Part shown: in pieces, positions 13,617-29,236 of the stretch
How the letters are laid out: each line of letters opens with the position of its first letter
Numbering within the stretch: position 1 is the stretch's first letter
Assembly (NCBI RefSeq): GCF_003991155.1
Contig: NZ_CP031295.1
Length of the DNA stretch: 64,000 bases
Strand: one strand, 5' to 3'
Source of the DNA: Escherichia coli
Lineage (GTDB): Bacteria; Pseudomonadota; Gammaproteobacteria; Enterobacterales; Enterobacteriaceae
Notes under the pieces: generated by a model
Seen by the model: the letters and a program-made list of their open reading frames with translations, nothing else
The model's database searches: none
What the model was told of the DNA's origin: nothing
Translations under genes and position numbers: made by a program

Positions 13617-14432
13617 TTAGAAAAACTCATCGAGCATCAAATGAAACTGCAATTTATTCATATCAGGATTATCAATACCATATTTTTGAAAAAGCCGTTT
13701 CTGTAATGAAGGAGAAAACTCACCGAGGCAGTTCCATAGGATGGCAAGATCCTGGTATCGGTCTGCGATTCCGACTCGTCCAACATCAATACAACCTATT
13801 AATTTCCCCTCGTCAAAAATAAGGTTATCAAGTGAGAAATCACCATGAGTGACGACTGAATCCGGTGAGAATGGCAAAAGCTTATGCATTTCTTTCCAGA
13901 CTTGTTCAACAGGCCAGCCATTACGCTCGTCATCAAAATCACTCGCATCAACCAAACCGTTATTCATTCGTGATTGCGCCTGAGCGAGACGAAATACGCG
14001 ATCGCTGTTAAAAGGACAATTACAAACAGGAATCGAATGCAACCGGCGCAGGAACACTGCCAGCGCATCAACAATATTTTCACCTGAATCAGGATATTCT
14101 TCTAATACCTGGAATGCTGTTTTCCCGGGGATCGCAGTGGTGAGTAACCATGCATCATCAGGAGTACGGATAAAATGCTTGATGGTCGGAAGAGGCATAA
14201 ATTCCGTCAGCCAGTTTAGTCTGACCATCTCATCTGTAACATCATTGGCAACGCTACCTTTGCCATGTTTCAGAAACAACTCTGGCGCATCGGGCTTCCC
14301 ATACAATCGATAGATTGTCGCACCTGATTGCCCGACATTATCGCGAGCCCATTTATACCCATATAAATCAGCATCCATGTTGGAATTTAATCGCGGCCTC
14401 GAGCAAGACGTTTCCCGTTGAATATGGCTCAT
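13617..14432 (-). CDS. aph(3')-Ia: Aminoglycoside 3'-phosphotransferase APH(3')-Ia
   Basis: 271 aa MSHIQRETSCSRPRLNSNMDADLYGYKWARDNVGQSGATIYRLYGK... = Tn903 aphA1. Confidence 0.95.
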   Translation of the reverse strand: MSHIQRETSCSRPRLNSNMDADLYGYKWARDNVGQSGATIYRLYGKPDAPELFLKHGKGSVANDVTDEMVRLNWLTEFMPLPTIKHFIRTPDDAWLLTTAIPGKTAFQVLEEYPDSGENIVDALAVFLRRLHSIPVCNCPFNSDRVFRLAQAQSRMNNGLVDASDFDDERNGWPVEQVWKEMHKLLPFSPDSVVTHGDFSLDNLIFDEGKLIGCIDVGRVGIADRYQDLAILWNCLGEFSPSLQKRLFQKYGIDNPDMNKLQFHLMLDEFF

Positions 14433-14519
14433 AACACCCCTTGTATTACTGTTTATGTAAGCAGACAGTTTTATTGTTCATGATGATATATTTTTATCTT
14501 GTGCAATGTAACATCAGAG

Positions 14520-15339
14520 GGCACTGTTGCAAATAGTCGGTGGTGATAAACTTATCATCCCCTTTTGCTGATGGAGCTGCACATGAACCCATTCAAAGGC
14601 CGGCATTTTCAGCGTGACATCATTCTGTGGGCCGTACGCTGGTACTGCAAATACGGCATCAGTTACCGTGAGCTGCAGGAGATGCTGGCTGAACGCGGAG
14701 TGAATGTCGATCACTCCACGATTTACCGCTGGGTTCAGCGTTATGCGCCTGAAATGGAAAAACGGCTGCGCTGGTACTGGCGTAACCCTTCCGATCTTTG
14801 CCCGTGGCACATGGATGAAACCTACGTGAAGGTCAATGGCCGCTGGGCGTATCTGTACCGGGCCGTCGACAGCCGGGGCCGCACTGTCGATTTTTATATC
14901 TCCTCCCGTCGTAACAGCAAAGCTGCATACCGGTTTCTGGGTAAAATCCTCAACAACGTGAAGAAGTGGCAGATCCCGCGATTCATCAACACGGATAAAG
15001 CGCCCGCCTATGGTCGCGCGCTTGCTCTGCTCAAACGCGAAGGCCGGTGCCCGTCTGACGTTGAACACCGACAGATTAAGTACCGGAACAACGTGATTGA
15101 ATGCGATCATGGCAAACTGAAACGGATAATCGGCGCCACGCTGGGATTTAAATCCATGAAGACGGCTTACGCCACCATCAAAGGTATTGAGGTGATGCGT
15201 GCACTACGCAAAGGCCAGGCCTCAGCATTTTATTATGGTGATCCCCTGGGCGAAATGCGCCTGGTAAGCAGAGTTTTTGAAATGTAAGGCCTTTGAATAA
15301 GACAAAAGGCTGCCTCATCGCTAACTTTGCAACAGTGCC
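14520..15339 (+). mobile_element. IS26 (copy 3, 820 bp)
   Basis: IS26 IRs at both ends; intact tnp26. Confidence 0.95.
14583..15287 (+). CDS. tnp26: IS26 transposase Tnp26
   Basis: 234 aa; one substitution versus copy 1 (DFYISS vs DFYLSS). Confidence 0.95.
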
Positions 15340-15660
15340 ACGAACAGCACCTTCAGATAATGGTATCCAGTCAATTTGTGCCTTCATAATACCAGTCATC
15401 GCTCCATGTCGTTCCGGAGAGCACCACACCATTCCTTCAGACCAGCGAACCAGTTCACGCAACTCCATAACTTTTGGATGTGATTCCGGTGCATCATCAG
15501 GAAGTGGAAGGCCAGATGGATTAAAAATGCGGACGTCTGCGCCCATTGCAGTTAACAAACGGCCTGCTTCCTCTGTCGCCAGTCGACTGTATGAGCGCTC
15601 ACGAACTGAGCCATAAAGCATTAGAATACGAGGTGGGTGAGATATTGCCGGTATCCCCAT
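15340..15660 (-). pseudogene. arsH: arsH (NADPH-dependent FMN reductase), 3'-truncated by IS26
   Basis: N-terminal approx 107 aa [27 protein letters not shown]... ArsH-like; reading frame runs into IS26. Confidence 0.6.
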
Positions 15661-16248: not shown

Positions 16249-17328
16249 ATGAATAGTTGGATTCCTATGTTGCAAGATGCCGCAGAGATGTTTGTTTTTC
16301 TGGCTGTTGAGCTTTCATTGCTGTTTATTGTCATTAGTGCCGGTGTGAGCCTGATAAGGCAAAAAGTCCCGGATCATAAAATTCAGCAGATGATGGGGGC
16401 GAGAAAAGGTAAGGGGTATCTGTTGGCCTCGTTGCTGGGAGCCGTTACCCCTTTCTGTAGTTGCTCAACAATTCCAATGTTGCGAGGATTGTTGTCTGCG
16501 AAAGCGGGGTTTGGTCCGACACTCACTTTTTTGTTTGTTTCACCGTTGCTTAATCCCATTATCGTGGGACTAATGTGGGTTACCTTTGGCTGGAAAGTAA
16601 CTTTGCTGTATGCGATCATCGCTGCCGGTGTTTCAGTTCTTTCCAGTATTATACTGGATTATTTAGGGTTTGAACGTCATATTGTTGAATACAAAAATTC
16701 AGTATCAGGTAGTTGCGCCACCAAGTGCGGTGATTCTGAAGCTTCGGTAAAAACGAATTGCTGTACTTCATCAGCAAAAACCATAATTAACTTAAAGACA
16801 GTAAAGAAAGAGCAAAATATATCGGCGTGTTGTCCCTCAATTCTATCAGAAAAATCTTCTGAAAGTTGTTGCAGCAGCGAGAGTCAGGGCAACAGAAATC
16901 TCACAATGAATGCCACCTCTGGTCTAATAAAATTAGCAATGAAAGATGCCTTACAACAGTTTAAGGATGTTCTGCCTTATCTTTTGTTAGCTATATTAAT
17001 AGGTTCATTTATTTATGGTTTTATCCCTTCAGAGTGGATTGCAGCTCATGCCGGTGCAGATAATCCATTAGCCATACCGCTCAGTGCTGTTGTTGGTATT
17101 CCGCTGTATATTCGTGCTGAGGCCGTAATACCACTTGCATCAGTTCTGATGACTAAAGGTATGGGCCTCGGAGCTTTAATGGCCTTGATAATCGGTAGTG
17201 CTGGAGCGAGTCTGACAGAAGTAATATTGCTTAAATCAATGTTCAGAATGCCCATGATAATCGCATTTCTGACGGTTATCTTAGGTATGGCAATCCTTAT
17301 GGGATATTTAACGCAATTTTTGTTTTAA
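16249..17328 (+). CDS. arsP: ArsP-like organoarsenical efflux permease
   Basis: Multi-TM permease with the ArsP signature TPFCSCSTIP and a Cys-rich loop (CC, ACCP, SCCSS). Confidence 0.65.
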   Translation: MNSWIPMLQDAAEMFVFLAVELSLLFIVISAGVSLIRQKVPDHKIQQMMGARKGKGYLLASLLGAVTPFCSCSTIPMLRGLLSAKAGFGPTLTFLFVSPLLNPIIVGLMWVTFGWKVTLLYAIIAAGVSVLSSIILDYLGFERHIVEYKNSVSGSCATKCGDSEASVKTNCCTSSAKTIINLKTVKKEQNISACCPSILSEKSSESCCSSESQGNRNLTMNATSGLIKLAMKDALQQFKDVLPYLLLAILIGSFIYGFIPSEWIAAHAGADNPLAIPLSAVVGIPLYIRAEAVIPLASVLMTKGMGLGALMALIIGSAGASLTEVILLKSMFRMPMIIAFLTVILGMAILMGYLTQFLF

Positions 17329-17620
17329 TCCTTATGAGAAGGGATTTTTGCGTCAATATGAAAATCCCTTCAGTCTTACGGCGCGGTTCTAACGGTGTAG
17401 CCCTTTTATTGTTATCCCTAAACCACCTCCTAGGGAGGTGGTGATTGATCCTGTAAGGCTATAGCCTGAAGAATGCCCATGTCGGAATATCTCTGCTTAC
17501 TGACCACAAGTAAAAGCAACTGTTCTACCAGCAGCCTGCAAAAAACATATAAGCTGATCTGAAAGGAATACTTCACAATGAATATTATTGTGTTTGTAAC
17601 CTGCTGTTATCGCGATGAAA

Positions 17621-18238
17621 TTACCGTTCAGTTTTTTCGGTTGACGCGGACTGTTCCTGCATGGTTTTCATCTTTAGCTTCTGTTGTTCCCTTACTGCCA
17701 GCCAGCGTCTGGCATTCAGCGCATCGCATTCTGATACCTGACCTGCTGGTAGTCCATCCAGTCCATAACGAGGGATACCTGCGACAGCAGTACGCTGCAG
17801 ATATACCTGTCGGGTGGTGATGCAGGATATTGCACAGGACCATTCATCCAGTGTCAGTTCTGTCTCAGGGTGTTCTGTCAGGAATGCGGCAAAATCATTG
17901 GTTATGCCAATTTTCAGTGGAAGAAATCCTCCGCCTTCTGCGCGAAGATGGGGAAACAGAGACTTCACTTTTTCCACGCAATCGTGAGTAAATTCATGAG
18001 TCCAATGAGGCTGGCGTGGAAAACGGCGTCTTTTCTTTTTTTTCTTACAGGCAGGAGCATCAGGGGTATGAGTATCGACGGCAGGCGAACTGATCCCCTC
18101 AGAGACTGATTCTTCCATCTTTTCTGTCTCTGAACGTGCGATAACACCTGTTTTTTCAGATAAGGAAGGGGGTAAAAGAGTGCGACGTTTTTTCACCATA
18201 ATGATGGGTGTTTTCTTTTCTTCCTGATATTTCCCCAT
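17621..18238 (-). CDS. ProQ/FinO-domain RNA-binding protein
   Basis: Lys/Arg-rich tract (KKKKKRRR) followed by FLPLKIGITNDFAAFL...RYGLDG, resembling ProQ/FinO domain. Confidence 0.45.
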   Translation of the reverse strand: MGKYQEEKKTPIIMVKKRRTLLPPSLSEKTGVIARSETEKMEESVSEGISSPAVDTHTPDAPACKKKKKRRRFPRQPHWTHEFTHDCVEKVKSLFPHLRAEGGGFLPLKIGITNDFAAFLTEHPETELTLDEWSCAISCITTRQVYLQRTAVAGIPRYGLDGLPAGQVSECDALNARRWLAVREQQKLKMKTMQEQSASTEKTER

Positions 18239-18525
18239 AAAAACCTCTACGATGTGTTCTTATATAATAATATATATCATATTTTCACGATTAACATAAT
18301 ATCTTCGTTAAGAAAACAACAGAGCAAAATTTGTTTTTTTTTGACAGGCATGAAATGAGCCAGCATAATTATATTAATTATTATCCCAAATGAGTTTTTG
18401 TATTTGCTCATTCGGGATGGTTGGATATTTTAAGTTATATCTACTGTATCATTCTCAGGTAATCGTTCCATTAAATCAGAAACTACGGGCTGTAACCAGT
18501 CAGTGACTTCACTCACATACTGATG

Positions 18526-19992
18526 TCATTCGGGATGCCTGGAGGCCAGATCCATCACTCGTGTTAACCCGGACGGACGATCAATGCCCAATTTAGTTAA
18601 AATATTCGAGATATAATTATGAGCATCAAGTTCAACTCTGATATCCCTTGCTGCTTCGATTATTTCTAAATATTCGCCACCCAATCCGTCCAGTGGGACA
18701 TTTGTAATAAGATAATGAATGTATTGTTCAGGCTTAACCCCATTTGGGAGATTAAATTGTTTTACTTTTCCTTCCGCTGCCGCTTTTAACTCATAAGTTC
18801 GTGATTCTGTGCCGGTGAAAACTTTATCACGAGCAGTTTTCTTTTCATTTTCTGTGGAATATTTATCGCCATCAAGAATATAAAGTTTACCAGATAGATT
18901 GTCACCACGAATAAGGGTACTGGCAAGTAGAGTGAATGCGTTTGAAGCTGCGCCAAATTTAAATATTTTTACATATTTGCTGGCCTTAAGTGAAGAACAT
19001 ATTTTATTTATTATGGCAACAGCTAAGTCATCTTCTACATATATTTCAATAGGCGTCGTTGATTCACCTGTTAATCTGTTTATAGCATCAGGTTTTGTTT
19101 CTTCAAATGAATAACTACGGCCTTGAATGTTTACGACGTGTCTTATATTTATCTTGTCTGATAAAGTGGTTATCATTTCTCTATGGGTAGTAAAGATGAT
19201 TTGTTTGTTTTTATCTTTGGCATGAGATGATATGACTTCTATTAACTTTTTCAATGCTTCGTCATGCAACAATAAATCTAATTCATCAATTAATATTAAG
19301 GCGTTCTTGTCCGCTTTCAATATTGTTTCCAGAATTAAAAATATCTTTTGCTCTCCTGCGCTCATACTCAATGATGAGTAGGCCAGTCCCCCTGACTCAA
19401 CTCCAATCAATATTTTTCCATTGGGTTGTTGATGCTGATTGAAACTTGTGTATGGTTTATTAAGTATATAGGAGGCGTAATGAAGAATGTTTGTTATTAA
19501 ATCATTACTGACACTGCTGGTTTCATACTGAATATTATTCTTTTTTTCTGATTCTATTATAGGAACACATTTATCAATGCCAAGATAGTAAACTTCTCTT
19601 AAAGGACGACGAGCATAAATCTGAATCCATCGTGAGCCTCGAATATCTGCTTTTCCATAATTTTTCAATTCATTTTCAATCATTACCCCATCTTTACGAT
19701 AAGTTAAATTTACAATGAAGTCACTGCCGTTCCATTCAGCATGTGGGCTGCGTGGAAAAAAATGCATTAACCGATGGTCTTCACCGGGGAAACCTTCTTC
19801 AGGCATGTATATGCTTGCTATAGCATGGAGTATTGTTGATTTTCCGCTTCCATTTGGACCTAAAATTGCGGTTAACGCATGAGGTTTAAAAATAATCTCG
19901 TTTAATCCATTTATACATTTTAGTTTGTTAATTTTAATGGAGTTCAAGACTTGACCAGTAATGGTTTTTTTATTTTTTTCTGCCATTTTCAA
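18526..19992 (-). CDS. OLD-family ABC ATPase-TOPRIM nuclease (defence-associated), apparently solo
   Basis: Walker A GPNGSGKST, signature/Walker B LSMSAGEQK...ILIDELDLLLHDE, H-loop FTTH; C-terminal TOPRIM-like IEIYVEDD and YILDGDKY; AT-rich. Confidence 0.55.
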   Translation of the reverse strand: MKMAEKNKKTITGQVLNSIKINKLKCINGLNEIIFKPHALTAILGPNGSGKSTILHAIASIYMPEEGFPGEDHRLMHFFPRSPHAEWNGSDFIVNLTYRKDGVMIENELKNYGKADIRGSRWIQIYARRPLREVYYLGIDKCVPIIESEKKNNIQYETSSVSNDLITNILHYASYILNKPYTSFNQHQQPNGKILIGVESGGLAYSSLSMSAGEQKIFLILETILKADKNALILIDELDLLLHDEALKKLIEVISSHAKDKNKQIIFTTHREMITTLSDKINIRHVVNIQGRSYSFEETKPDAINRLTGESTTPIEIYVEDDLAVAIINKICSSLKASKYVKIFKFGAASNAFTLLASTLIRGDNLSGKLYILDGDKYSTENEKKTARDKVFTGTESRTYELKAAAEGKVKQFNLPNGVKPEQYIHYLITNVPLDGLGGEYLEIIEAARDIRVELDAHNYISNILTKLGIDRPSGLTRVMDLASRHPE

Positions 19993-20248
19993 ATCCTAGC
20001 ATTATGTTGGGGGGATTCACCATGTAATTCAGAAACATATAACTGTGAACAGGGGATATATCAAATCCTTTTAATATTCTATTTGGCACAGTATTCTACA
20101 TCAGGCCTCTTTTATGCTACAGACTTTTTGAGATGTCTGTAATTTTAGACTTAATGTTATGACTGATCATATCTCCTATCCACTGGTGGCGCAGGAAAGT
20201 TAACCAGCTGCCACCATGGGATGATGTGTAAACCGTGCTGGTATGTTT

Positions 20249-20839
20249 TTACGGGGTGACGCTTTCATTAACCTGTACACGAACCTCCATTCCGGCATCG
20301 TGACAGGCCTGCAGCCACTGCGCCACTTCCAGCGGATCGCCCTCCAGGCGTACCACCCTGCCTTCTTTATTCCATAACTGCAGACAGGTGCTGCCGTCGA
20401 GACGTACCACAAAATCCCCACGGCAGGCCTGATACGTTATGCCGTTCAGCTGCACCGCCAGATCAGTGGCAGAAGTGCCGTCTGCGGGCAGACCTGCTGC
20501 CGGGACCAGCGGCAGTACGACGACTTCTGCCGCACGCTGTTCTGCCCGGAGGCGGTCCTGTTCTGCCAGCAGCAGAGGCTGTGCCACGGCCCGGCCGGCG
20601 TCCGTCAGCTCGACAGCCAGCTGCAGATTCGGGGCGCGCAGGGTACGCAGCCAGCCGGCATCCTCCAGACGACGGCAGGAGGCGCGCAGGTTTGGCCCGT
20701 AGACCGGGGCTTCCCCGCTTCGCTCCAGCACCCGTTCCAGGTCCCGCGTCAGCACGGGGCCCGGCCGTTTTTCATCAAGCGCAGCCAGCACAATCAGCAC
20801 TCTCCGCTGCAGTGGCGACGGTCGGCGGCTCTGGGTCAT
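20249..20839 (-). CDS. hypothetical protein, GC-rich, possible winged-helix N-terminus
   Basis: 196-aa ORF, GC-rich codon usage distinct from neighbours; translationally coupled to upstream 85-aa ORF. Confidence 0.4.
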   Translation of the reverse strand: MTQSRRPSPLQRRVLIVLAALDEKRPGPVLTRDLERVLERSGEAPVYGPNLRASCRRLEDAGWLRTLRAPNLQLAVELTDAGRAVAQPLLLAEQDRLRAEQRAAEVVVLPLVPAAGLPADGTSATDLAVQLNGITYQACRGDFVVRLDGSTCLQLWNKEGRVVRLEGDPLEVAQWLQACHDAGMEVRVQVNESVTP

Positions 20840-21096
20840 TACCTGTCATCCTCCGGCCAGATGAGGTTTCTGAGGCGCTGAAAGTCGGCGTCAATGAGCT
20901 CCTGTCTCTTTATGGCATTCATTGAGGCATAGCCATTTATGGCCAGTTCATGCCAGAAGATCAGCACGGCTCCGGCTTTGGCTGACTCGCAGAGATAAAT
21001 CGCGCCCTGGCTGTCCAGATTGCATTCCCGGATGCGTTTTTCCGCAAACCGGGTCAGTTGTTCATAGCTGAGTGAAAACACCCTTTCTTCATCCAT
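20839..21096 (-). CDS. hypothetical small protein (85 aa)
   Basis: ORF whose stop overlaps start of 20249-20839 gene. Confidence 0.35.
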   Translation of the reverse strand: MDEERVFSLSYEQLTRFAEKRIRECNLDSQGAIYLCESAKAGAVLIFWHELAINGYASMNAIKRQELIDADFQRLRNLIWPEDDR

Positions 21097-21449: not shown

Positions 21450-23588
21450 ATGGACATTGAAATACGCCACTGCAATAACATCGTACGAGCACATATCACC
21501 CTCACTGCCGATAAACTGAACATTAAGTTTGCGCCAAATGGTACTGGAAAAAGTACGCTGTCACGGGCCATAAGCTGTGCGGCGCGGGACGACATTCAGG
21601 GACTACAGGCACTGATGCCCTTCCGGCTGCGCGGAGAAAACCCCGATAGCACCGGGCCCATTGTCATCGGTGCTGACGGGATTGGGGACGTGATGTGCTT
21701 CAACGAGGAGTACGTCAGTCAGTTTACGTTCCAACCGGACGAGCTCATCAGTGATAGCTTTAATATTCTTATCCGCAATCAAGCCCATGCGGAAAGAGAG
21801 CGTGAAATAGAAGAAATGACGCAAAAGATCCGGGCTGTTTTCACGGATCACACTGAGCTGAACTCTCTGATAGACCATCTACAGGAACTCAGTAATGCTT
21901 TCAGATCAACCAGTTCCGGGATTTCACGTTCTTCAACCGGCATGAGAGGTCTGTCAGGCGGAAATAAAATACACCACATTCCGGCTGGTCTTGAGAACTA
22001 TCAACCCTACATCCGCAGTGAACGCCGCGTGGAATGGATTGACTGGCAGACAAAGGGACTCGAGTTTTCGCCCCTTTCGGATGGCTGCTGTCCGTTCTGT
22101 ACCGGTGATATCACGGGAAAGGAAGCACAAATTCGCCAAGTCAGAGAGGAATACGATAAATCCACCATTAAAAACCTGACCGCTATCATCAGACTGGTGG
22201 AAAACCTCGGTAATTACCTGACGGAGAGCGCCAGAGAACGCCTTCTGGCCATTACTATGCTTCAGAACGGTCCGGAAGCCGAACATATCGAGTACCTAGT
22301 GGCGTTGAAACGCCAGACCGATACGCTGACAGAGAAACTCACTGCGCTGAGAGGCCTGAATGTTTTCAGCCTGCAGGAACAGCAGAACGTTCGGGAGGTG
22401 CTCACTGCCAGGTTGATTGACCTGCAGTTCTTCCCTGATCTGCAATCCGAACTCATGCAGGGGATCACCGACAGACTGAACGCGGCCCTTATGGACCTGA
22501 TAAACCTTGCCGGACCGCTGCAGGGAAAAATTAACCGGCACCGGGACAGCATGATCCGGCTGATCGCACAGCACAAAACAAACATCAATAATTTCCTCAC
22601 TTATGCAGGCTATAAATACAGGGTGGATATAGCCGGCGAGGGAGAGCAGAGAAAACTCAGGCTACGACACATAGATTTTGACGGGTACGTCAGCGGCGGT
22701 AGCCAGCATCTCAGCTATGGAGAACGGAACGCCTTTGCGATTGTGTTATTCATGTATGAATGCCTGTCAAAAAACCCGGGACTGATTATCCTTGATGATC
22801 CCATATCTTCTTTTGATAAAAACAAGAAGTTTGCCATTCTTGAAATGCTGTTCAGACGTGCAAGTGGTGAATGCCTGAAGAACCGGACTGTACTTATGCT
22901 GACGCATGACGTGGAGCCTGTGATTGACACGCTGAAGTCAGTCAGAAGGTTGTTCAGTAATCAGGTGACCGCCTCCTGCCTGCGCCTGTCTGCTGGAGTC
23001 ATAGAAGAATTACCTGTTAACGACGGCGATATCATGACATTCATGCAGATCTGCAAATCCATCACCGCGTCAGCAGACTGTGAGGAGATCATTAAGCTCA
23101 TCTATCTTCGTCGCTACTTTGAAATCGTTGACGAACGTGGTGATGCTTATCAGCTTCTATCCAATCTATTCCATCGACGCGTCGTCCCGCTGGATTATCG
23201 CGAGCCTGCCGCTGCGGGCTCGGGCTATCCCAAAATGGCTCCTGAGAAAATTCAGCAGGCCTTGCGGGATATCCGGGAGTATGTGGACAGTTTTGATTAC
23301 CCGCGACTTCAGGCTCTCGTCAGCAGCCCAGATGAAATAAAAAACCTGTACCGTCGCTGTCGTAACGGCTATGAAAAACTGCAGGTATTCCGTTTACTGG
23401 AACTGGATCAGGACCATCCGGTAATACGAAAATTCGTTAACGAAACGTACCACATTGAAAATGAGTTCATCTGTCAACTAGATCCGTCCAGATTCGATCT
23501 CATCCCGGAGTACGTGATTATGGAATGTGACAAGCTCATCGCCCTGCCACCGGCAGCAAACCAGAGCTCGGTTGCCCGTATCGCTTGA
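21450..23588 (+). CDS. SMC/Rad50-like ABC ATPase with CxxC hook and C-terminal effector-like domain (RloC/PrrC-like candidate)
   Basis: Walker A APNGTGKST (aa~30); CCPFC (aa~223) in predicted coiled-coil insert; signature LSYGERNAF, Walker B LIILDDP, H-loop LMLTHD (aa~440-495); approx 210-aa C-terminal domain. Confidence 0.5.
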   Translation: MDIEIRHCNNIVRAHITLTADKLNIKFAPNGTGKSTLSRAISCAARDDIQGLQALMPFRLRGENPDSTGPIVIGADGIGDVMCFNEEYVSQFTFQPDELISDSFNILIRNQAHAEREREIEEMTQKIRAVFTDHTELNSLIDHLQELSNAFRSTSSGISRSSTGMRGLSGGNKIHHIPAGLENYQPYIRSERRVEWIDWQTKGLEFSPLSDGCCPFCTGDITGKEAQIRQVREEYDKSTIKNLTAIIRLVENLGNYLTESARERLLAITMLQNGPEAEHIEYLVALKRQTDTLTEKLTALRGLNVFSLQEQQNVREVLTARLIDLQFFPDLQSELMQGITDRLNAALMDLINLAGPLQGKINRHRDSMIRLIAQHKTNINNFLTYAGYKYRVDIAGEGEQRKLRLRHIDFDGYVSGGSQHLSYGERNAFAIVLFMYECLSKNPGLIILDDPISSFDKNKKFAILEMLFRRASGECLKNRTVLMLTHDVEPVIDTLKSVRRLFSNQVTASCLRLSAGVIEELPVNDGDIMTFMQICKSITASADCEEIIKLIYLRRYFEIVDERGDAYQLLSNLFHRRVVPLDYREPAAAGSGYPKMAPEKIQQALRDIREYVDSFDYPRLQALVSSPDEIKNLYRRCRNGYEKLQVFRLLELDQDHPVIRKFVNETYHIENEFICQLDPSRFDLIPEYVIMECDKLIALPPAANQSSVARIA

Positions 23589-23749
23589 GCCACTGTTTTT
23601 GCCGCCGGAAGATAGGCTTTAGCTCCCTGATAGTCTGATCTTCGAAGATACCCTACAGTTTAGGACCGCTTACTGTAGATATCTGTTAAAACAGCCCGTA
23701 TACGGGCTGTTTCTTGGTGCCCTTATCTCCTGACTTTGAAAAGAGTGTC

Positions 23750-24166
23750 TTACTTCACCCAGTCTTCCAGCACCAGGTCAGGCACTCGCTCAAATTCTCT
23801 TGTATTATTCGTTACCAGTATCGCCCCGGCGGCGATGGCGTGCCCGGCAATCGCCGTGTCGTTCGGGCCGATCGGCGTCCCGGCCAGCCGCAGTGCCACT
23901 TTAATCTTCGTGGTGGCGTCTACTGCGGCGCGATCCCAGGGCAGGATGGCATCGAGGCGGGCGCAGAATTCATCGACCAGTTGGACGTGACGTGGTGAGG
24001 CCTTTGGGCCGGTAGCCCCGAAGCGCATTTCAGAGTAGGTGATGGCCGAGACCACTATACGGTGGCCGCGTAGCACCGCCTGCTCCAGACGCTTCAGGAC
24101 GGCTTCTGGCTGTTCACGCATGATGAACGAGCAGATACAGGTATCAAGCATATAAGTCTTGTTCAC
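23750..24166 (-). CDS. vapC: VapC PIN-domain toxin
   Basis: 138 aa MLDTCICSFIMREQP...; PIN-domain acidic residues; overlaps vapB stop. Confidence 0.85.
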   Translation of the reverse strand: MNKTYMLDTCICSFIMREQPEAVLKRLEQAVLRGHRIVVSAITYSEMRFGATGPKASPRHVQLVDEFCARLDAILPWDRAAVDATTKIKVALRLAGTPIGPNDTAIAGHAIAAGAILVTNNTREFERVPDLVLEDWVK

Positions 24167-24393
24167 AGGTTAAATCGCCCTTCGTCGCTGACAACATCCT
24201 CGCGCTCCGCCATAAAATCTGGATCGGCTTTTTCGTACTCTAGGAATGATCCCCAGGTTGGCCGGACGGGGCGCAGGATGATGCTGTCCCCTTCCCGGAC
24301 GATCTCGAGCTCGCTCACCCCCTCAAAATCCAGATCACGAGGCAGACGGATGGCGCGGTTGTTGCCATTTTTGAATATCGATACGGTTCTCAT
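24163..24393 (-). CDS. vapB: VapB antitoxin (AbrB/SpoVT-type)
   Basis: 76 aa MRTVSIFKNGNNRAIRLPRDL...; 4-nt overlap with vapC. Confidence 0.85.
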   Translation of the reverse strand: MRTVSIFKNGNNRAIRLPRDLDFEGVSELEIVREGDSIILRPVRPTWGSFLEYEKADPDFMAEREDVVSDEGRFNL

Positions 24394-24407
24394 GTTTTTT
24401 CTCTCCC

Positions 24408-24540
24408 GAGCATATGGATATGTGAAACATATCCGGAATATTCAAAGCACCGGGTGTGTGCATATGTTTAGTATAGGCAGATGTGTGGCATATGTATAGC
24501 GGTAGCATATGTAGATGCCAGGCATATGTTTAGCATATCT
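24408..24540. promoter_or_regulatory. array of about six GCATATGT repeats upstream of vapB (putative vapBC operator)
   Basis: Repeated CATATG-core motifs spaced about 15-25 bp immediately upstream of vapB start. Confidence 0.4.
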
Positions 24541-24688
24541 CTATTTCTTTCTTTTTTATCGGAGATCCGAAAAAAGGTTAAGTCTGATCTTAATGAAATT
24601 ACATGGAATTTGAGTGATATCCCTTACCCCACATCTCCAACGTGCTATCTATAAAGGTTGATACATCTCACTTAGTCCGGAGGTTGTT

Positions 24689-24979
24689 ATGAGCGTCAAA
24701 ATCACAGGTTTAGACAAAATGCAGAAACAGCTAAAAGAGGTTGAGAGAGCAACAGAGGCATTAAACGGAAGTTATGATGTCCACTTCGATGCTAACGATC
24801 CTGTCAGCATTGAGAACGCGATTCAGGAAGCCTATTCCATGGTGTACGAACGCGCTTCTGGTTATGCCACTAATCCGATGGTCAGCCCATTAATCGAACA
24901 CATGAAAGAAAATCTGCGCCAACAGATTCTGGACAGAGCAGAACAACAAAGACAGGAGAGCGGGCAGGATGGCAATTGA
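24689..24979 (+). CDS. hypothetical small protein (96 aa), first gene of TIR-like cassette
   Basis: ORF with RBS-like GGAGG upstream; 11-nt overlap with next gene. Confidence 0.45.
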   Translation: MSVKITGLDKMQKQLKEVERATEALNGSYDVHFDANDPVSIENAIQEAYSMVYERASGYATNPMVSPLIEHMKENLRQQILDRAEQQRQESGQDGN

Positions 24980-25868
24980 TATCTTTCAGTCACTTAAAAA
25001 TTGCGTATTCGACCTTCAGCGCGCTGACGTTCAGAACTATCAGCAACCTCTTAAGCAATTGGCCCGGCTCTTGAACTCAGAGAATCTGCAGTCAGTTAAT
25101 GCACATCTGACCCGCAATGTTGAACTTGATACCTTTCTGGCCAGGAGTGAAGATACTGAATCCAGCATGGCTGGTTCCGCTGTTCTACAGTGGCCTGATG
25201 AGCCCGCTGATATTTTGGGCCTGAAGTTGCTGCTGATCGAGAAAATGGCAGACGATAACAATTTTTCCTTTAATTTCTGTCATACATTTTTCTATGATCG
25301 AAACATTATTGAATCCATTCGAAAATTCACGTCGTCATTAGTTGCCCCGTTCGTGCGCGATTACCAGTTGTATGTGGAAAACCAACACGATCCTGAGCCT
25401 GCAGTGTTTCGGCCGGTTTCCCGAAAAATTTTTATTGTTCATGGCCATGATAATGATGCCCTTCAGTCTGTTGCCCGTTTTATATCCCGGATAGGTCTTG
25501 AGGAAATCATTCTTTCAGAACGTCCTGACGGCTCCAGGACGATTATCGAGAAATTTGAAGCAGAGTCAGGGGATGTCAGTTTTGCCATCGTGCTGATGAC
25601 GCCCGACGATAGCGGCAGTGCTCTGGCATCTGAAAGCACACGTCTCCGCGCACGCCAGAATGTCCTGTATGAGCTCGGATATTTCGCCGGGAAGCTTGGA
25701 CGCGGGAAAGTACTTGTACTCAGGAAGGGAGATATCGAAATCCCTTCAGATCTTGCCGGGGTTCTCTATACCGAGCTTGATGAGCATGGTGGATGGAAAC
25801 GCAAACTGCTGAGTGAGCTTGCGTATGCCGGTGTTCCTTTTGACAAGGATAAAGCATTAAGCGCCTGA
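24969..25868 (+). CDS. TIR-like-domain protein (PF10137-type C-terminus) with unknown N-terminal domain
   Basis: C-terminal motifs KIFIVHGHD, AIVLMTPDD, RARQNVLYELGYFAGKLGRGKV, EIPSDLAGV typical of predicted nucleotide-binding TIR-like proteins. Confidence 0.55.
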   Translation: MAIDIFQSLKNCVFDLQRADVQNYQQPLKQLARLLNSENLQSVNAHLTRNVELDTFLARSEDTESSMAGSAVLQWPDEPADILGLKLLLIEKMADDNNFSFNFCHTFFYDRNIIESIRKFTSSLVAPFVRDYQLYVENQHDPEPAVFRPVSRKIFIVHGHDNDALQSVARFISRIGLEEIILSERPDGSRTIIEKFEAESGDVSFAIVLMTPDDSGSALASESTRLRARQNVLYELGYFAGKLGRGKVLVLRKGDIEIPSDLAGVLYTELDEHGGWKRKLLSELAYAGVPFDKDKALSA

Positions 25869-25917
25869 TCTCCTTCATTTAGTAAGAAAAAGGCCGCTAA
25901 GCGGCCTTAATTTTTGG

Positions 25918-28143
25918 TCAGTCGTCATTTTCCAGCGCTGTTTTGAGCGCTTCCTGCTCCGGAGTCAGCTCGTTGCCGGACAGCATAACCTTCAACTTCT
26001 CTTCGACTGCTGGCCAGTCATCAAAGAACGGACTGACCTGGTCACGCGCAATCCGGCGATATGCCCCTCGGTGGGAGCTGAAGACACTGGTCTGTAATCG
26101 TATCAACAGGTTAACAAGGCCTTCATCAGTGGTAGTAACTTCTCTGACCCATTGCTTCACGGTTTCACCTGAACTCATGTCTCTCCAGGCGTAGAGATAC
26201 CCGAGAAGAGACTTGCGCAGGAGAAGCTGTTGCTGAAGTTCTGGTTGATTCATACGTTCCGCAAACCTGTCACGCAACCGTTCCGTAATATCGCGACTGA
26301 AAAGAGCGTCTGAAGGCGAAGGTACTGCATTCTGAGCAAGTCCATGTTCCCAGATAAGATCCCGCATAAAATCGGCTATCCAGAACGGCGAAGCACCCGT
26401 AACGATCAGTTTTTCCATAAGCGTGATCGTTCTGGTCTCATCAATATCCTGCATATGCTTCAGCAGATGCCGTACAACCTCATTAATGGCCATTTCACGC
26501 AGGGAAAACCATGGGTTACGGATACTGAAGCGAGTGCTCACCTCATCGGTGTGATCGAAGAAAAAATGAACCAGTCCTGCGCACTCTTCGAAATTACGTT
26601 CTCTTATCAGGCCTGGAGTCAGTCTGCTCAGTATATGTTCAAACCAGGTTCCGGACAGACTGCCCACACTGTTGATTTTTGAGAGCAGCAATTCAGAAAG
26701 CTGCTGCTGTTTTTCCGATACGCCAGCCTGTTCAAAAAGCTGTCTGAAGAATTCAGGTGGCAGAACATTCTGTGGTGAGGAGAAGGCAAAATAATATCGC
26801 CAGTGCGTCAGGCTGCTGAGTCGTTTACCGGTCGTCTGGATATGACGAAAATCCTCACTGACGGGCTCAAAAAGATTCAGATATTCATCATTATGTCCAC
26901 TGATACCTGGGATCCAGTCTGCAAGTGTCAGAAACGAGTCTGCATTTGATGCCCTGAACGTCTTCATACATCTGATAAGCCCCTCCCGGAAGTCTGCTTT
27001 CTCTCCGTCAGAAAGCATACCCTGACCGGTTTCAATCACGGACCGTTCTGTCAGGTAATGCTCTGTCCAGTCATACAGAGCCGGGTTTGTCACCCGTATA
27101 AGCTGAAGCAGGCACAAATCAGGGAAATAAACAAAATCCCGCATCCCCGGATAAAGAAAAATCAGGGAATTAATGGCCTGATGGATTTCCCGTGGCGTCG
27201 AAAGTGCGGCACCATAGGTATCAGTCACCGCGATGAGATCCCTTACCATTCCAGAGTCTGGCGGTTGATTATTAATTTGCTGATATAGAGCCTCAGCCCG
27301 CTGGCGAAATTCATTACGTAAATCAAAGGCTTCAGGTCGGGGTAATTTAAAACTAAGCTGAATGATTTTCTGGAGATAACGGCTGCCATCTTCGATATTC
27401 AGCGCATGTTCAACGGCATGAGTGATAATCTGCCTGTCATAACAGAGAATATGGGTAAAGCGGGGCAGATCGGCTACTGCACGCACAAGCCTGAACACTT
27501 CCGCCACCTGGGATGGCTCCAGTCGGTCCAGATCATCCATGACAACAATGAACTTCAGATCCAGACTCACCAGTTGTCCTGCAATTTCAGCCCGAAGCTT
27601 TGTCGTGGTTTTCTGATCAACAGCCAGACGGCTGTCTGAAAATACCTTTATTCCGCCTGCTATCCAGTTAATAATGCTGGAAAACTGTCCGATATATTGA
27701 ACCAGTGGAAGGACGCGCGATGAAGTATCCTGAGCATACTCAATCACTTTTTGAGCTTCCGGTGACAACAGATATTTACGCCAGAGCTTTTTGAAGCCCT
27801 TCGGGGGATAGCGTATTTCCATTTCCTGCTGGATAACCGTGGCAACCGGAAGAAAGAGCGCTTCAACCGGACTGCCGCCACTCAGCCAGGGAGAAATATG
27901 CAGCACATGCGTGTGAGCATCTTTTTTCAGGGCAAGGTTTCTCAGGATCAGATTAAGGAGGCTTGTTTTACCCGATCCCCATGCACCTTCTATTCCGACA
28001 ACATTTGAAGCCTCCAGAGGAAGAGTAAGGATGGAACGGGATATATTTTCTGCGATATTACCGAAACCGTATCGATCCTCAGGTACATCTTCAACTGCCG
28101 CATCAAGCCCTTTCTGGTTCCACAGCTGCCTCAGTATCTTCAT
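25918..28143 (-). CDS. KAP family P-loop NTPase
   Basis: 741 aa; Walker A GAWGSGKTS, Walker B FIVVMDDLDRL; large size typical of KAP NTPases. Confidence 0.6.
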   Translation of the reverse strand: MKILRQLWNQKGLDAAVEDVPEDRYGFGNIAENISRSILTLPLEASNVVGIEGAWGSGKTSLLNLILRNLALKKDAHTHVLHISPWLSGGSPVEALFLPVATVIQQEMEIRYPPKGFKKLWRKYLLSPEAQKVIEYAQDTSSRVLPLVQYIGQFSSIINWIAGGIKVFSDSRLAVDQKTTTKLRAEIAGQLVSLDLKFIVVMDDLDRLEPSQVAEVFRLVRAVADLPRFTHILCYDRQIITHAVEHALNIEDGSRYLQKIIQLSFKLPRPEAFDLRNEFRQRAEALYQQINNQPPDSGMVRDLIAVTDTYGAALSTPREIHQAINSLIFLYPGMRDFVYFPDLCLLQLIRVTNPALYDWTEHYLTERSVIETGQGMLSDGEKADFREGLIRCMKTFRASNADSFLTLADWIPGISGHNDEYLNLFEPVSEDFRHIQTTGKRLSSLTHWRYYFAFSSPQNVLPPEFFRQLFEQAGVSEKQQQLSELLLSKINSVGSLSGTWFEHILSRLTPGLIRERNFEECAGLVHFFFDHTDEVSTRFSIRNPWFSLREMAINEVVRHLLKHMQDIDETRTITLMEKLIVTGASPFWIADFMRDLIWEHGLAQNAVPSPSDALFSRDITERLRDRFAERMNQPELQQQLLLRKSLLGYLYAWRDMSSGETVKQWVREVTTTDEGLVNLLIRLQTSVFSSHRGAYRRIARDQVSPFFDDWPAVEEKLKVMLSGNELTPEQEALKTALENDD

Positions 28144-28144
28144 A

Positions 28145-29236
28145 TTACAGATCTCCGTACAGGCAGCGCAGCCCGGTCAGGGCCTCCGCCAGCGGGCCTT
28201 CTTGACACCGCGTGGCGAGCTCCCGGACCAGCGTCTCAAAGGCCTCCGCCGGCATAAAAATCCGCAGGCCGTCTATCCCGAAGAAGCCCTCCGGCGTGAC
28301 GTTTCCGGGCGGGGAGAACATCACTCGCTCCCCCTGGTGACCGTGCGTCAGGGCTTCCGGATGCCGGGCATACAGCGTGAACAGGCCCAGCAGTTCGGAT
28401 AACGCTTCCCAGCCGTACGGCACCACGAAGTCCTGGCCGGTGATCAGCAGGTGCAGACGGGGTGTGGTGTACCAGGCCCCCGGGCGTTCTCCGGGGTGCT
28501 GGCCGTCAACGCGGATCTCCAGGCGCAGCGTGCCGGCCTCAATGGTTTCCGTGACGGCAGAAATAACCGGGCGCAGCTCCTGTGCCAGCGTTCTTGCCTG
28601 TTCTGTGTTCCAGTCCAGGCCGCGCAGCATCAACGGGAAAACAGCTTTCAGCCGCGGCAGGGTGAAGATTTCTGCCAGCACCGCGTCCGGCACCTCCGCC
28701 AGGCCAAAACAGTCGCTCTCGAGCGGACGCAGGAGGTGTTCGGCATACATCTGATCCACCACGGGGCGCAGCGCTGCCCGGAAGGCTTCAAACTCTTCCG
28801 TCCAGTTTTTCCCGGCCAGGCGGAAAATCCCCTTCAGGTAGTGACCGTCCACAGGGCGATCGTGCTCCACCTGCCAGGCCAGCAGGTTGCCAGTGATGTC
28901 CAGCAGCGTGTCCAGGGCCGGGAGTGTGGCCAGCCTATTATGCCCGCGCAGGAAGGCCTCCCTGACGTGAACCAGGACAAAGCGCAGTTCGTCGCGGGAG
29001 AGCGCTGACGTGCCGAAGGTCTGGCCCAGAATGATATGCCGGTACAGCTGCCGGACCGTGGCCTCCGGATCGGCAATGAGCTGAAAATACCCGTCACCGG
29101 GCGCGACCGTTTTCAGGCCGTCATCGAGGAAGCGTTCGGCTAGGGCGTTGACCGAAGTATTTTCCCGACCGGCACGCGTTTTCAGCGCCTCGATAAGTTT
29201 TTTGTGAAAACGCAGGTTAAGCTGGCTTAGCATCAT
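28145..29236 (-). CDS. ribbon-helix-helix (Arc/MetJ-like) domain protein with large uncharacterised C-terminal domain
   Basis: N-terminus MMLSQLNLRFHKKLIEALKTRAGRENTSVNALAERFL resembles Arc-type RHH; GC-rich; stop overlaps KAP start (ATGA). Confidence 0.45.
   Translation of the reverse strand: MMLSQLNLRFHKKLIEALKTRAGRENTSVNALAERFLDDGLKTVAPGDGYFQLIADPEATVRQLYRHIILGQTFGTSALSRDELRFVLVHVREAFLRGHNRLATLPALDTLLDITGNLLAWQVEHDRPVDGHYLKGIFRLAGKNWTEEFEAFRAALRPVVDQMYAEHLLRPLESDCFGLAEVPDAVLAEIFTLPRLKAVFPLMLRGLDWNTEQARTLAQELRPVISAVTETIEAGTLRLEIRVDGQHPGERPGAWYTTPRLHLLITGQDFVVPYGWEALSELLGLFTLYARHPEALTHGHQGERVMFSPPGNVTPEGFFGIDGLRIFMPAEAFETLVRELATRCQEGPLAEALTGLRCLYGDL

Follow-up and report, generated by a model that had tools for sequence, protein, structure and literature searches.

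FopA (formerly YafB) is the ProQ/FINO-family protein encoded at 5713–6315 of the Salmonella IncI1 plasmid pCol1B9_SL1344 (RefSeq NC_017718). Among its RIP-seq ligands, the ~70-nt antisense RNA Inc dominates; FopA binds Inc, repZ and the complex that the two form, with a KD of ~1 μM, Inc-repZ pairing is 7-fold faster in its presence, and the outcome is repression of RepZ, the IncI1 replication initiator. Tyr146 and Arg157 are conserved in this protein, and an equal phylogenetic distribution of FopA and Inc/repZ has been reported (Gerovac et al., 2020, PMC7491321). PcnR of IncI2 plasmids is a plasmid FinO-domain protein of similar size. It represses RepA, and deletion of pcnR raises plasmid copy number ~10-fold; unlike FopA, it directly binds a stem-loop of the repR leader mRNA, with no antisense-RNA chaperoning (PMC8053102). 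FinO of F-like plasmids shares with FopA its plasmid location, a basic N-terminal extension and a role as chaperone for a cis-antisense RNA, but its gene lies at the tra operon's distal end and its ligand is FinP/traJ.

A gene annotated 'RNA chaperone ProQ' has also been described next to a phage-defence gene. On plasmid pUA1135 (NZ_MW590592), ibfA encodes a 518-aa ATPase-TOPRIM protein, its TOPRIM domain assigned by HHpred, that is homologous to HEC-04 and to the ibfA product of R64 and causes abortive infection of a P22-like phage. RT-PCR placed ydfA, ydeA and ibfA on a single transcript together with the 'RNA chaperone ProQ' gene downstream of them, and phage interference by ibfA alone, from its own promoter, equalled that of the whole operon (PMC12111858).

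Results

fopA is an intact gene of the ProQ/FinO family

We analysed a 64-kb stretch of DNA, referred to below as the window. The open reading frame at 17621–18238, exactly the span given in the preliminary description, is a genuine and intact gene, and its product is FopA (YafB), an RNA-binding chaperone of the ProQ/FinO family known from plasmids (Table 1). The gene starts with ATG and encodes a basic protein of 205 aa (23.2 kDa, pI 9.2).

Table 1. Features of the fopA locus and of the adjoining defence island (positions are those of the window).
Feature	Position	Strand	Basis
fopA (yafB), R64-type allele, CDS including stop codon	17621..18238	-	ORF list; identical to R64 WP_000521603.1; 69% identity to pCol1B9 FopA
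ProQ/FinO domain, residues 85–188, including Tyr146 and Arg157	17675..17986	-	Pfam PF04352, 5nb9 alignment, AF2/Foldseek
Long C-terminal helix (predicted), residues 170–204	17627..17731	-	AF2 secondary structure, pLDDT 85–95
Basic tract 1, KKRR, residues 16–19, in motif P-[IV]-I-x-V-K-K-R-R	18182..18193	-	Family alignment
Basic tract 2, KKKKKRRR, residues 65–72	18023..18046	-	Kept K/R-rich in all FopA-clade homologues
Shine-Dalgarno AGAGG, 5 nt 5' of the fopA ATG	18244..18248	-	Read from sequence
AT-rich ibfA-fopA spacer	18239..18525	-	Sequence comparison; RT-PCR across the pUA1135 junction (PMC12111858)
ibfA, OLD-like ABC-ATPase + TOPRIM defence gene (HEC-04), W487*	18526..19986	-	PADLOC, Pfam, R64 comparison, PMC12111858
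Two small ORFs, presumably ydeA and ydfA, head of the ydfA-ydeA-ibfA-fopA unit	20249–20839 (196 aa), 20839–21096 (85 aa)	-	ORFs; annotated in R64 and pSBF45a; order from PMC12111858
PDC-S06 ATPase, defence island	21450–23588		949 bits
TIR-domain PDC-S35 protein, defence island	24969–25868		
PifA, defence island	25918–28143		963 bits
PifC, defence island	28145–29236		

The preliminary description had proposed a ProQ/FinO-like protein and left the proposal to a profile search. That search confirmed it: PF04352 (ProQ/FINO) matched with 47.1 bits (E = 2.6e-12, profile positions 5–104 of 109) against a gathering cut-off of 27 bits. It was the only Pfam domain detected in FopA by the profile search, the ProQ C-terminal domain being absent. 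Identity with chromosomal ProQ was rejected, the NCBIfam ProQ equivalog model scoring 23 bits against a cut-off of 127. The top match among solved structures by sequence was the ProQ N-terminal domain (5nb9, E = 2.8e-4), in which Y146 and R157 of FopA, the equivalents of ProQ Tyr70 and Arg80, align with the conserved Tyr and Arg. Both residues are unchanged throughout the 18 homologues of the family alignment.

An AlphaFold2 (AF2) model computed from this 18-sequence alignment had pLDDT values of 72–95 over residues 80–204. Residues 1–65 were largely of low confidence (pLDDT <50 at residues 1–5, 20–22 and 24–65), and we read this N-terminal arm as probably disordered. The fold search with the model concurred with the profile search: the best 26 Foldseek matches in the PDB were all FinO-domain proteins (RocC, FinO, NMB1681 and Lpp1663), and the others had E ≥ 2. 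RocC matched with a target-normalised TM-score of 0.54–0.61, and FinO itself (1dvo) with E = 8.5e-4.

The basic stretches of the N-terminal arm are conserved features of the family. Within the first motif I13, V15, K16, K17, R18 and R19 are invariant across the 18 homologues, including the IncI2 PcnR-type protein, which is 35.7% identical to the window FopA and has both the same N-terminal motif, PVIVVKKRR, and the two invariant residues of the FinO domain, Tyr and Arg. The second tract had been singled out in the preliminary description as unusual. That view does not hold: KKKKKRRR is a conserved feature of the FopA family that has been published for FopA, and K68 within it is invariant in the alignment even in the 35.7%-identical IncI2 protein. 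Part of the KKKKK stretch is encoded by a run of eight A (- strand, 18036–18043). A few database homologues (P0075, P0117) seem frameshifted near the poly-lysine tract, which suggests slippage or homopolymer sequencing errors at the A run.

The dN/dS ratio between the window fopA and the pCol1B9 allele was 0.32, and that of the FinO domain between the window and an IncK allele was 0.11. Values of 0.11–0.32 indicate long-term purifying selection on fopA. When the 246 nt 3' of fopA were folded, the z-score was -0.70, indistinguishable from shuffled sequences, and no structured RNA was found there. FopA itself had no PADLOC match.

The window carries the R64 allele of fopA

The window FopA is identical to WP_000521603.1 of the IncI1 plasmid R64, where it is annotated 'ProQ/FINO family protein'. 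This protein is encoded at ≥99% amino-acid identity by 373 plasmids in PLSDB. At the DNA level, 840 PLSDB plasmids matched positions 17300–20200 of the window, 835 of them, and R64 among them, at ≥95% identity.

Compared with pCol1B9 FopA, the window protein is 69% identical in a gapless alignment covering 196 of 205 aa (E = 9e-99), and thus represents a different allele (31% divergent). The two agree in length class and in architecture: an N-terminal arm bearing a pair of basic stretches is joined to a FinO domain, and the C-terminal domain of ProQ is missing. Tyr146 and Arg157 occupy exactly the same positions in both. They differ in their surroundings: fopA of pCol1B9 (ColIb-P9) lies between yafA and the divergent yagA on a plasmid that carries Inc/repZ, whereas the window gene lies downstream of ibfA on an IncF plasmid apparently without Inc/repZ (see below). 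The divergence of the protein does not track that of its RNA ligand. The repZ leader/Inc region is 100% identical between R64 and pCol1B9 over 181 nt (280–460 of the compared segments), from which we presume that on IncI1 plasmids both alleles have one and the same Inc RNA as their partner.

The 'RNA chaperone ProQ' of pUA1135 (pUA1135_00003, WP_000521604.1) is 91.7% identical to the window FopA, and the same allele is present on pCFSAN004174. The gene order of pUA1135 is that of the window and the ibfA-fopA spacer is 98% identical; pUA1135, however, belongs to IncI1, has repZ at a distance of 2 kb and encodes a full-length IbfA of 518 aa, in contrast to the IncF backbone and the W487* IbfA of the window. 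From the orthology to FopA of pCol1B9 we infer that the window allele would share the RNA-binding and chaperone activity of its 69%-identical orthologue. The preliminary description had suggested that the protein might be an RNA chaperone that controls the expression of plasmid or defence genes. This fits what has been published on its relatives, the chaperoning of Inc-repZ pairing by FopA of pCol1B9 (PMC7491321) and the co-transcription with ibfA of the 92%-identical allele (PMC12111858).

The gene resides on an IncF plasmid that appears to lack Inc/repZ

Replication genes of the window are those for an IncFII-family RepA (319–1191) and a Rep3/RepFIB initiator (38479–39456). The window also includes genes whose counterparts in pCREC-544_1 are annotated as colicin M, sit and aerobactin, and its right-hand end is an F-type leading region. 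The plasmid is thus of the IncF (FIC/FIB), ColV/ColBM-like type, and not IncI1. The fopA region is identical in pCREC-544_1 and p14EC020b, both of which are IncFIB/IncFIC, MOBF and MPF_F. Among the eight plasmids that were typed, four were IncI-type (R64, pSBF45a, pCFSAN004174 and pUA1135), three IncF (pCREC-544_1, p14EC020b and ETEC p3) and one IncK.

Rfam searches of the 64-kb window detected neither PK-repZ/Inc nor a CopA-like RNA, at gathering thresholds over the whole window or at relaxed thresholds (E ≤ 0.5 over the whole window, E ≤ 10 over positions 1–1500). This negative result is meaningful, since the same models detected PK-repZ (194 bits) and Inc on pCol1B9 and CopA on an IncF relative. 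PK-repZ was also absent from the complete sequence of pCREC-544_1 (122,937 bp), whose fopA DNA is identical; the RNAs found there were CopA, FinP, the traJ 5' UTR and two sok. R64, which encodes the identical protein, does carry Inc/repZ on the same replicon. With no Inc/repZ or CopA-like RNA in the window and no PK-repZ in pCREC-544_1, the documented function of FopA probably cannot operate in cis here.

The window begins 318 nt before the IncFII-family repA gene. In pCREC-544_1, the position that corresponds to the first base of the window has the CopA antisense RNA (2186–2274 of the compared segment), tap, copB and finO immediately upstream. From this arrangement, the source plasmid probably encodes two FinO-domain proteins, FinO and FopA.

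In a rival reading, FopA would have been co-opted for CopA-CopT (repA leader) pairing on the IncFIC/FII replicon and would so control copy number. IncFII CopA/CopT and IncI1 Inc/repZ are homologous control systems, with a TTGGCG loop on a long stem common to CopA and Inc. The Rfam models cross-react accordingly (CopA with the Inc region of pCol1B9, 38 bits; PK-repZ with the CopT of an IncF plasmid, 27 bits), and CopA of pCREC-544_1 lies only 227–315 nt before the first base of the window. Nonetheless, Salmonella SL1344 also harbours the IncF plasmid pSLT, and the FopA ligands in that strain were Inc/repZ and a few chromosomal RNAs, the transcripts of pSLT reportedly being unbound (PMC9977716; PMC8136791). 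Furthermore, the IncF-borne fopA is 100% identical to the R64 gene, and thus shows nothing that would point to its having adapted to a different ligand. We regard a role in CopA-CopT pairing as very unlikely.

A FinO-type fertility inhibitor, acting on FinP/traJ to repress conjugation, would be another conceivable identity for the protein. The FinO domain is common to both, and some GenBank records label yafB 'FinO bacterial conjugation repressor'. However, BLASTP of FopA against FinO of pCREC-544_1 gave no significant similarity (E = 0.18 over 26 aa), and the ligand sets of FopA and FinO are distinct (PMC8136791). FinO also failed to complement PcnR (PMC8053102). As to location, the preliminary description had placed the gene away from any tra region, and no tra gene was found in the 64-kb window, nor was FinO proper (tblastn); fopA does not occupy the distal position in a tra operon, and sits instead in an IncI1-derived defence module. 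Moreover, pCREC-544_1 has a finO of its own, beside the replicon and encoding FinO proper, together with FinP. Fertility inhibition by FopA appears extremely improbable.

fopA is the last gene of a probable ibfA defence operon

The neighbour had been described as OLD-like, and its PADLOC matches agree: the best were HEC-04 (142 bits) and ATPase-Toprim_I-B (74 bits, to residue 403), followed by AriA, GajA and Old. Pfam AAA_21, AAA_15 and SMC_N matched the N-terminal half of IbfA. Relative to R64, a TGG codon is changed to TGA at 18526–18528 (- strand), and the last 32 of 518 residues are lost. The short form of ibfA is also annotated in pCREC-544_1, and in the IncF plasmid ETEC p3 ibfA is split into two CDS; fopA is intact in both. 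The two ORFs that are candidates for ydeA and ydfA had no Pfam or PADLOC matches.

The spacer between ibfA and fopA is 191 nt in R64 and longer in the window because ibfA ends early. A simple scan of the spacer found no fopA promoter on the - strand; the sole strong match, a σ70-like site (TTGACA-17 nt-CATAAT, 11/12 consensus, 18341–18369), is on the + strand and directed antisense into the 3' end of ibfA. It could mark a cis-antisense RNA, or it could have arisen by chance, the DNA being AT-rich. Past this site comes a 10-bp hairpin (18387–18417); no terminator is obvious there.

These features bear on the possibility that FopA tunes its own operon: by binding either the mRNA of ydfA-ydeA-ibfA-fopA or antisense RNA arising in the spacer, it would adjust the level of IbfA, a potentially toxic abortive-infection nuclease. 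In favour of this, the genes are co-oriented, and the co-transcription demonstrated on pUA1135 involves a 92%-identical allele (PMC12111858). Flanks were examined for six alleles of ≥90% identity, and fopA adjoins ibfA in every one of them, on IncI (R64, pSBF45a, pCFSAN004174) and IncF (pCREC-544_1, p14EC020b, ETEC p3) backbones alike. Between alleles that diverge by 8% in FopA, the spacer is 98% conserved, and the near-consensus site on the opposite strand could supply the antisense RNA. Against such control, phage interference was the same with ibfA alone under its own promoter (PMC12111858). The characterised FopA of pCol1B9 is not beside ibfA, and its neighbour YagA, which as a relative of IbfA would have made the adjacency ancestral, has no similarity to IbfA. 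In both the window and ETEC p3, ibfA is damaged and fopA is intact. The antisense site lacks a terminator, and promoter-like sites were only modestly above the number in shuffled sequences (15 versus 9.1 ± 3.2). Control of the operon by FopA is, in our estimate, improbable.

Discussion

The reading that we consider highly probable is that the gene encodes a FopA-type RNA chaperone of the R64 allele, which on this IncF plasmid, with no Inc/repZ in cis, would most likely be a functional passenger of the module in which it lies. In the mechanism that we envisage, the protein would combine a disordered N-terminal arm that bears both K/R tracts, the FinO domain and the C-terminal helix. By homology, the FinO domain would hold on to the stem-loop and the 3' tail of a structured antisense RNA, and the basic arm would promote pairing of this RNA with its target, as is known for FopA and, for FinO, by analogy. 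On IncI1 plasmids the ligand would be the ~70-nt Inc RNA, and faster Inc-repZ pairing would lead to repression of RepZ. As the last cistron of ydfA-ydeA-ibfA-fopA, the gene would belong to an IncI1-derived variable-region and defence module now on an IncF colicin/virulence plasmid, where FopA would keep its capacity for binding structured RNAs that resemble Inc, such as those of a co-resident IncI1 plasmid or of the host. The role of FopA on the IncF plasmid is thus one that we infer.

A stretch running from ArsR and a permease through fopA and ibfA to PifA and PifC is common to R64 and the window, and therefore looks like a piece of an IncI1 variable region that moved onto IncF plasmids. fopA appears to have been brought along unchanged with this defence module, away from its only well-established ligand.

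It seems unlikely to us that FopA is more than a passenger on IncF plasmids, that is, that it acts in trans or has a second role that explains its constant place downstream of ibfA. Acting in trans, it could strengthen the repression that Inc exerts on an IncI1 plasmid entering or already sharing the cell, a form of RNA-level plasmid competition like that of FinO/RepX on pRSF1010; in a second role, it could control the ibfA defence operon or CopA/repA, as weighed above.

The protein, its family, the basic tracts, the neighbouring gene and the co-transcription have all been described or annotated before. In the literature that we consulted, we found no statement that IncF plasmids without Inc/repZ commonly carry fopA in unchanged form, and this observation is a modest lead. 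It mildly qualifies the equal distribution reported for FopA and Inc/repZ (PMC7491321). The gene would matter only for its context: unchanged, it and its anti-phage module sit on resistance and virulence plasmids of the ColV/ColBM type that already encode FinO. The IncF-borne fopA is thereby a natural test of what sets target choice among FinO-domain proteins, and of whether RNA chaperones of plasmids are a means of cross-talk, be it among plasmids that share a cell or with defence genes.

A dense defence island (21450–29236) adjoins the fopA operon; in addition to the genes listed in Table 1, vapBC is present in it. On the other side (13617–15660), an IS26-bounded resistance segment with aph(3')-Ia at 13617–14432 abuts a truncated arsH-like ORF and the arsR and permease genes that flank fopA. 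The IncI1-derived module is cut by IS26 on the aph(3')-Ia side.
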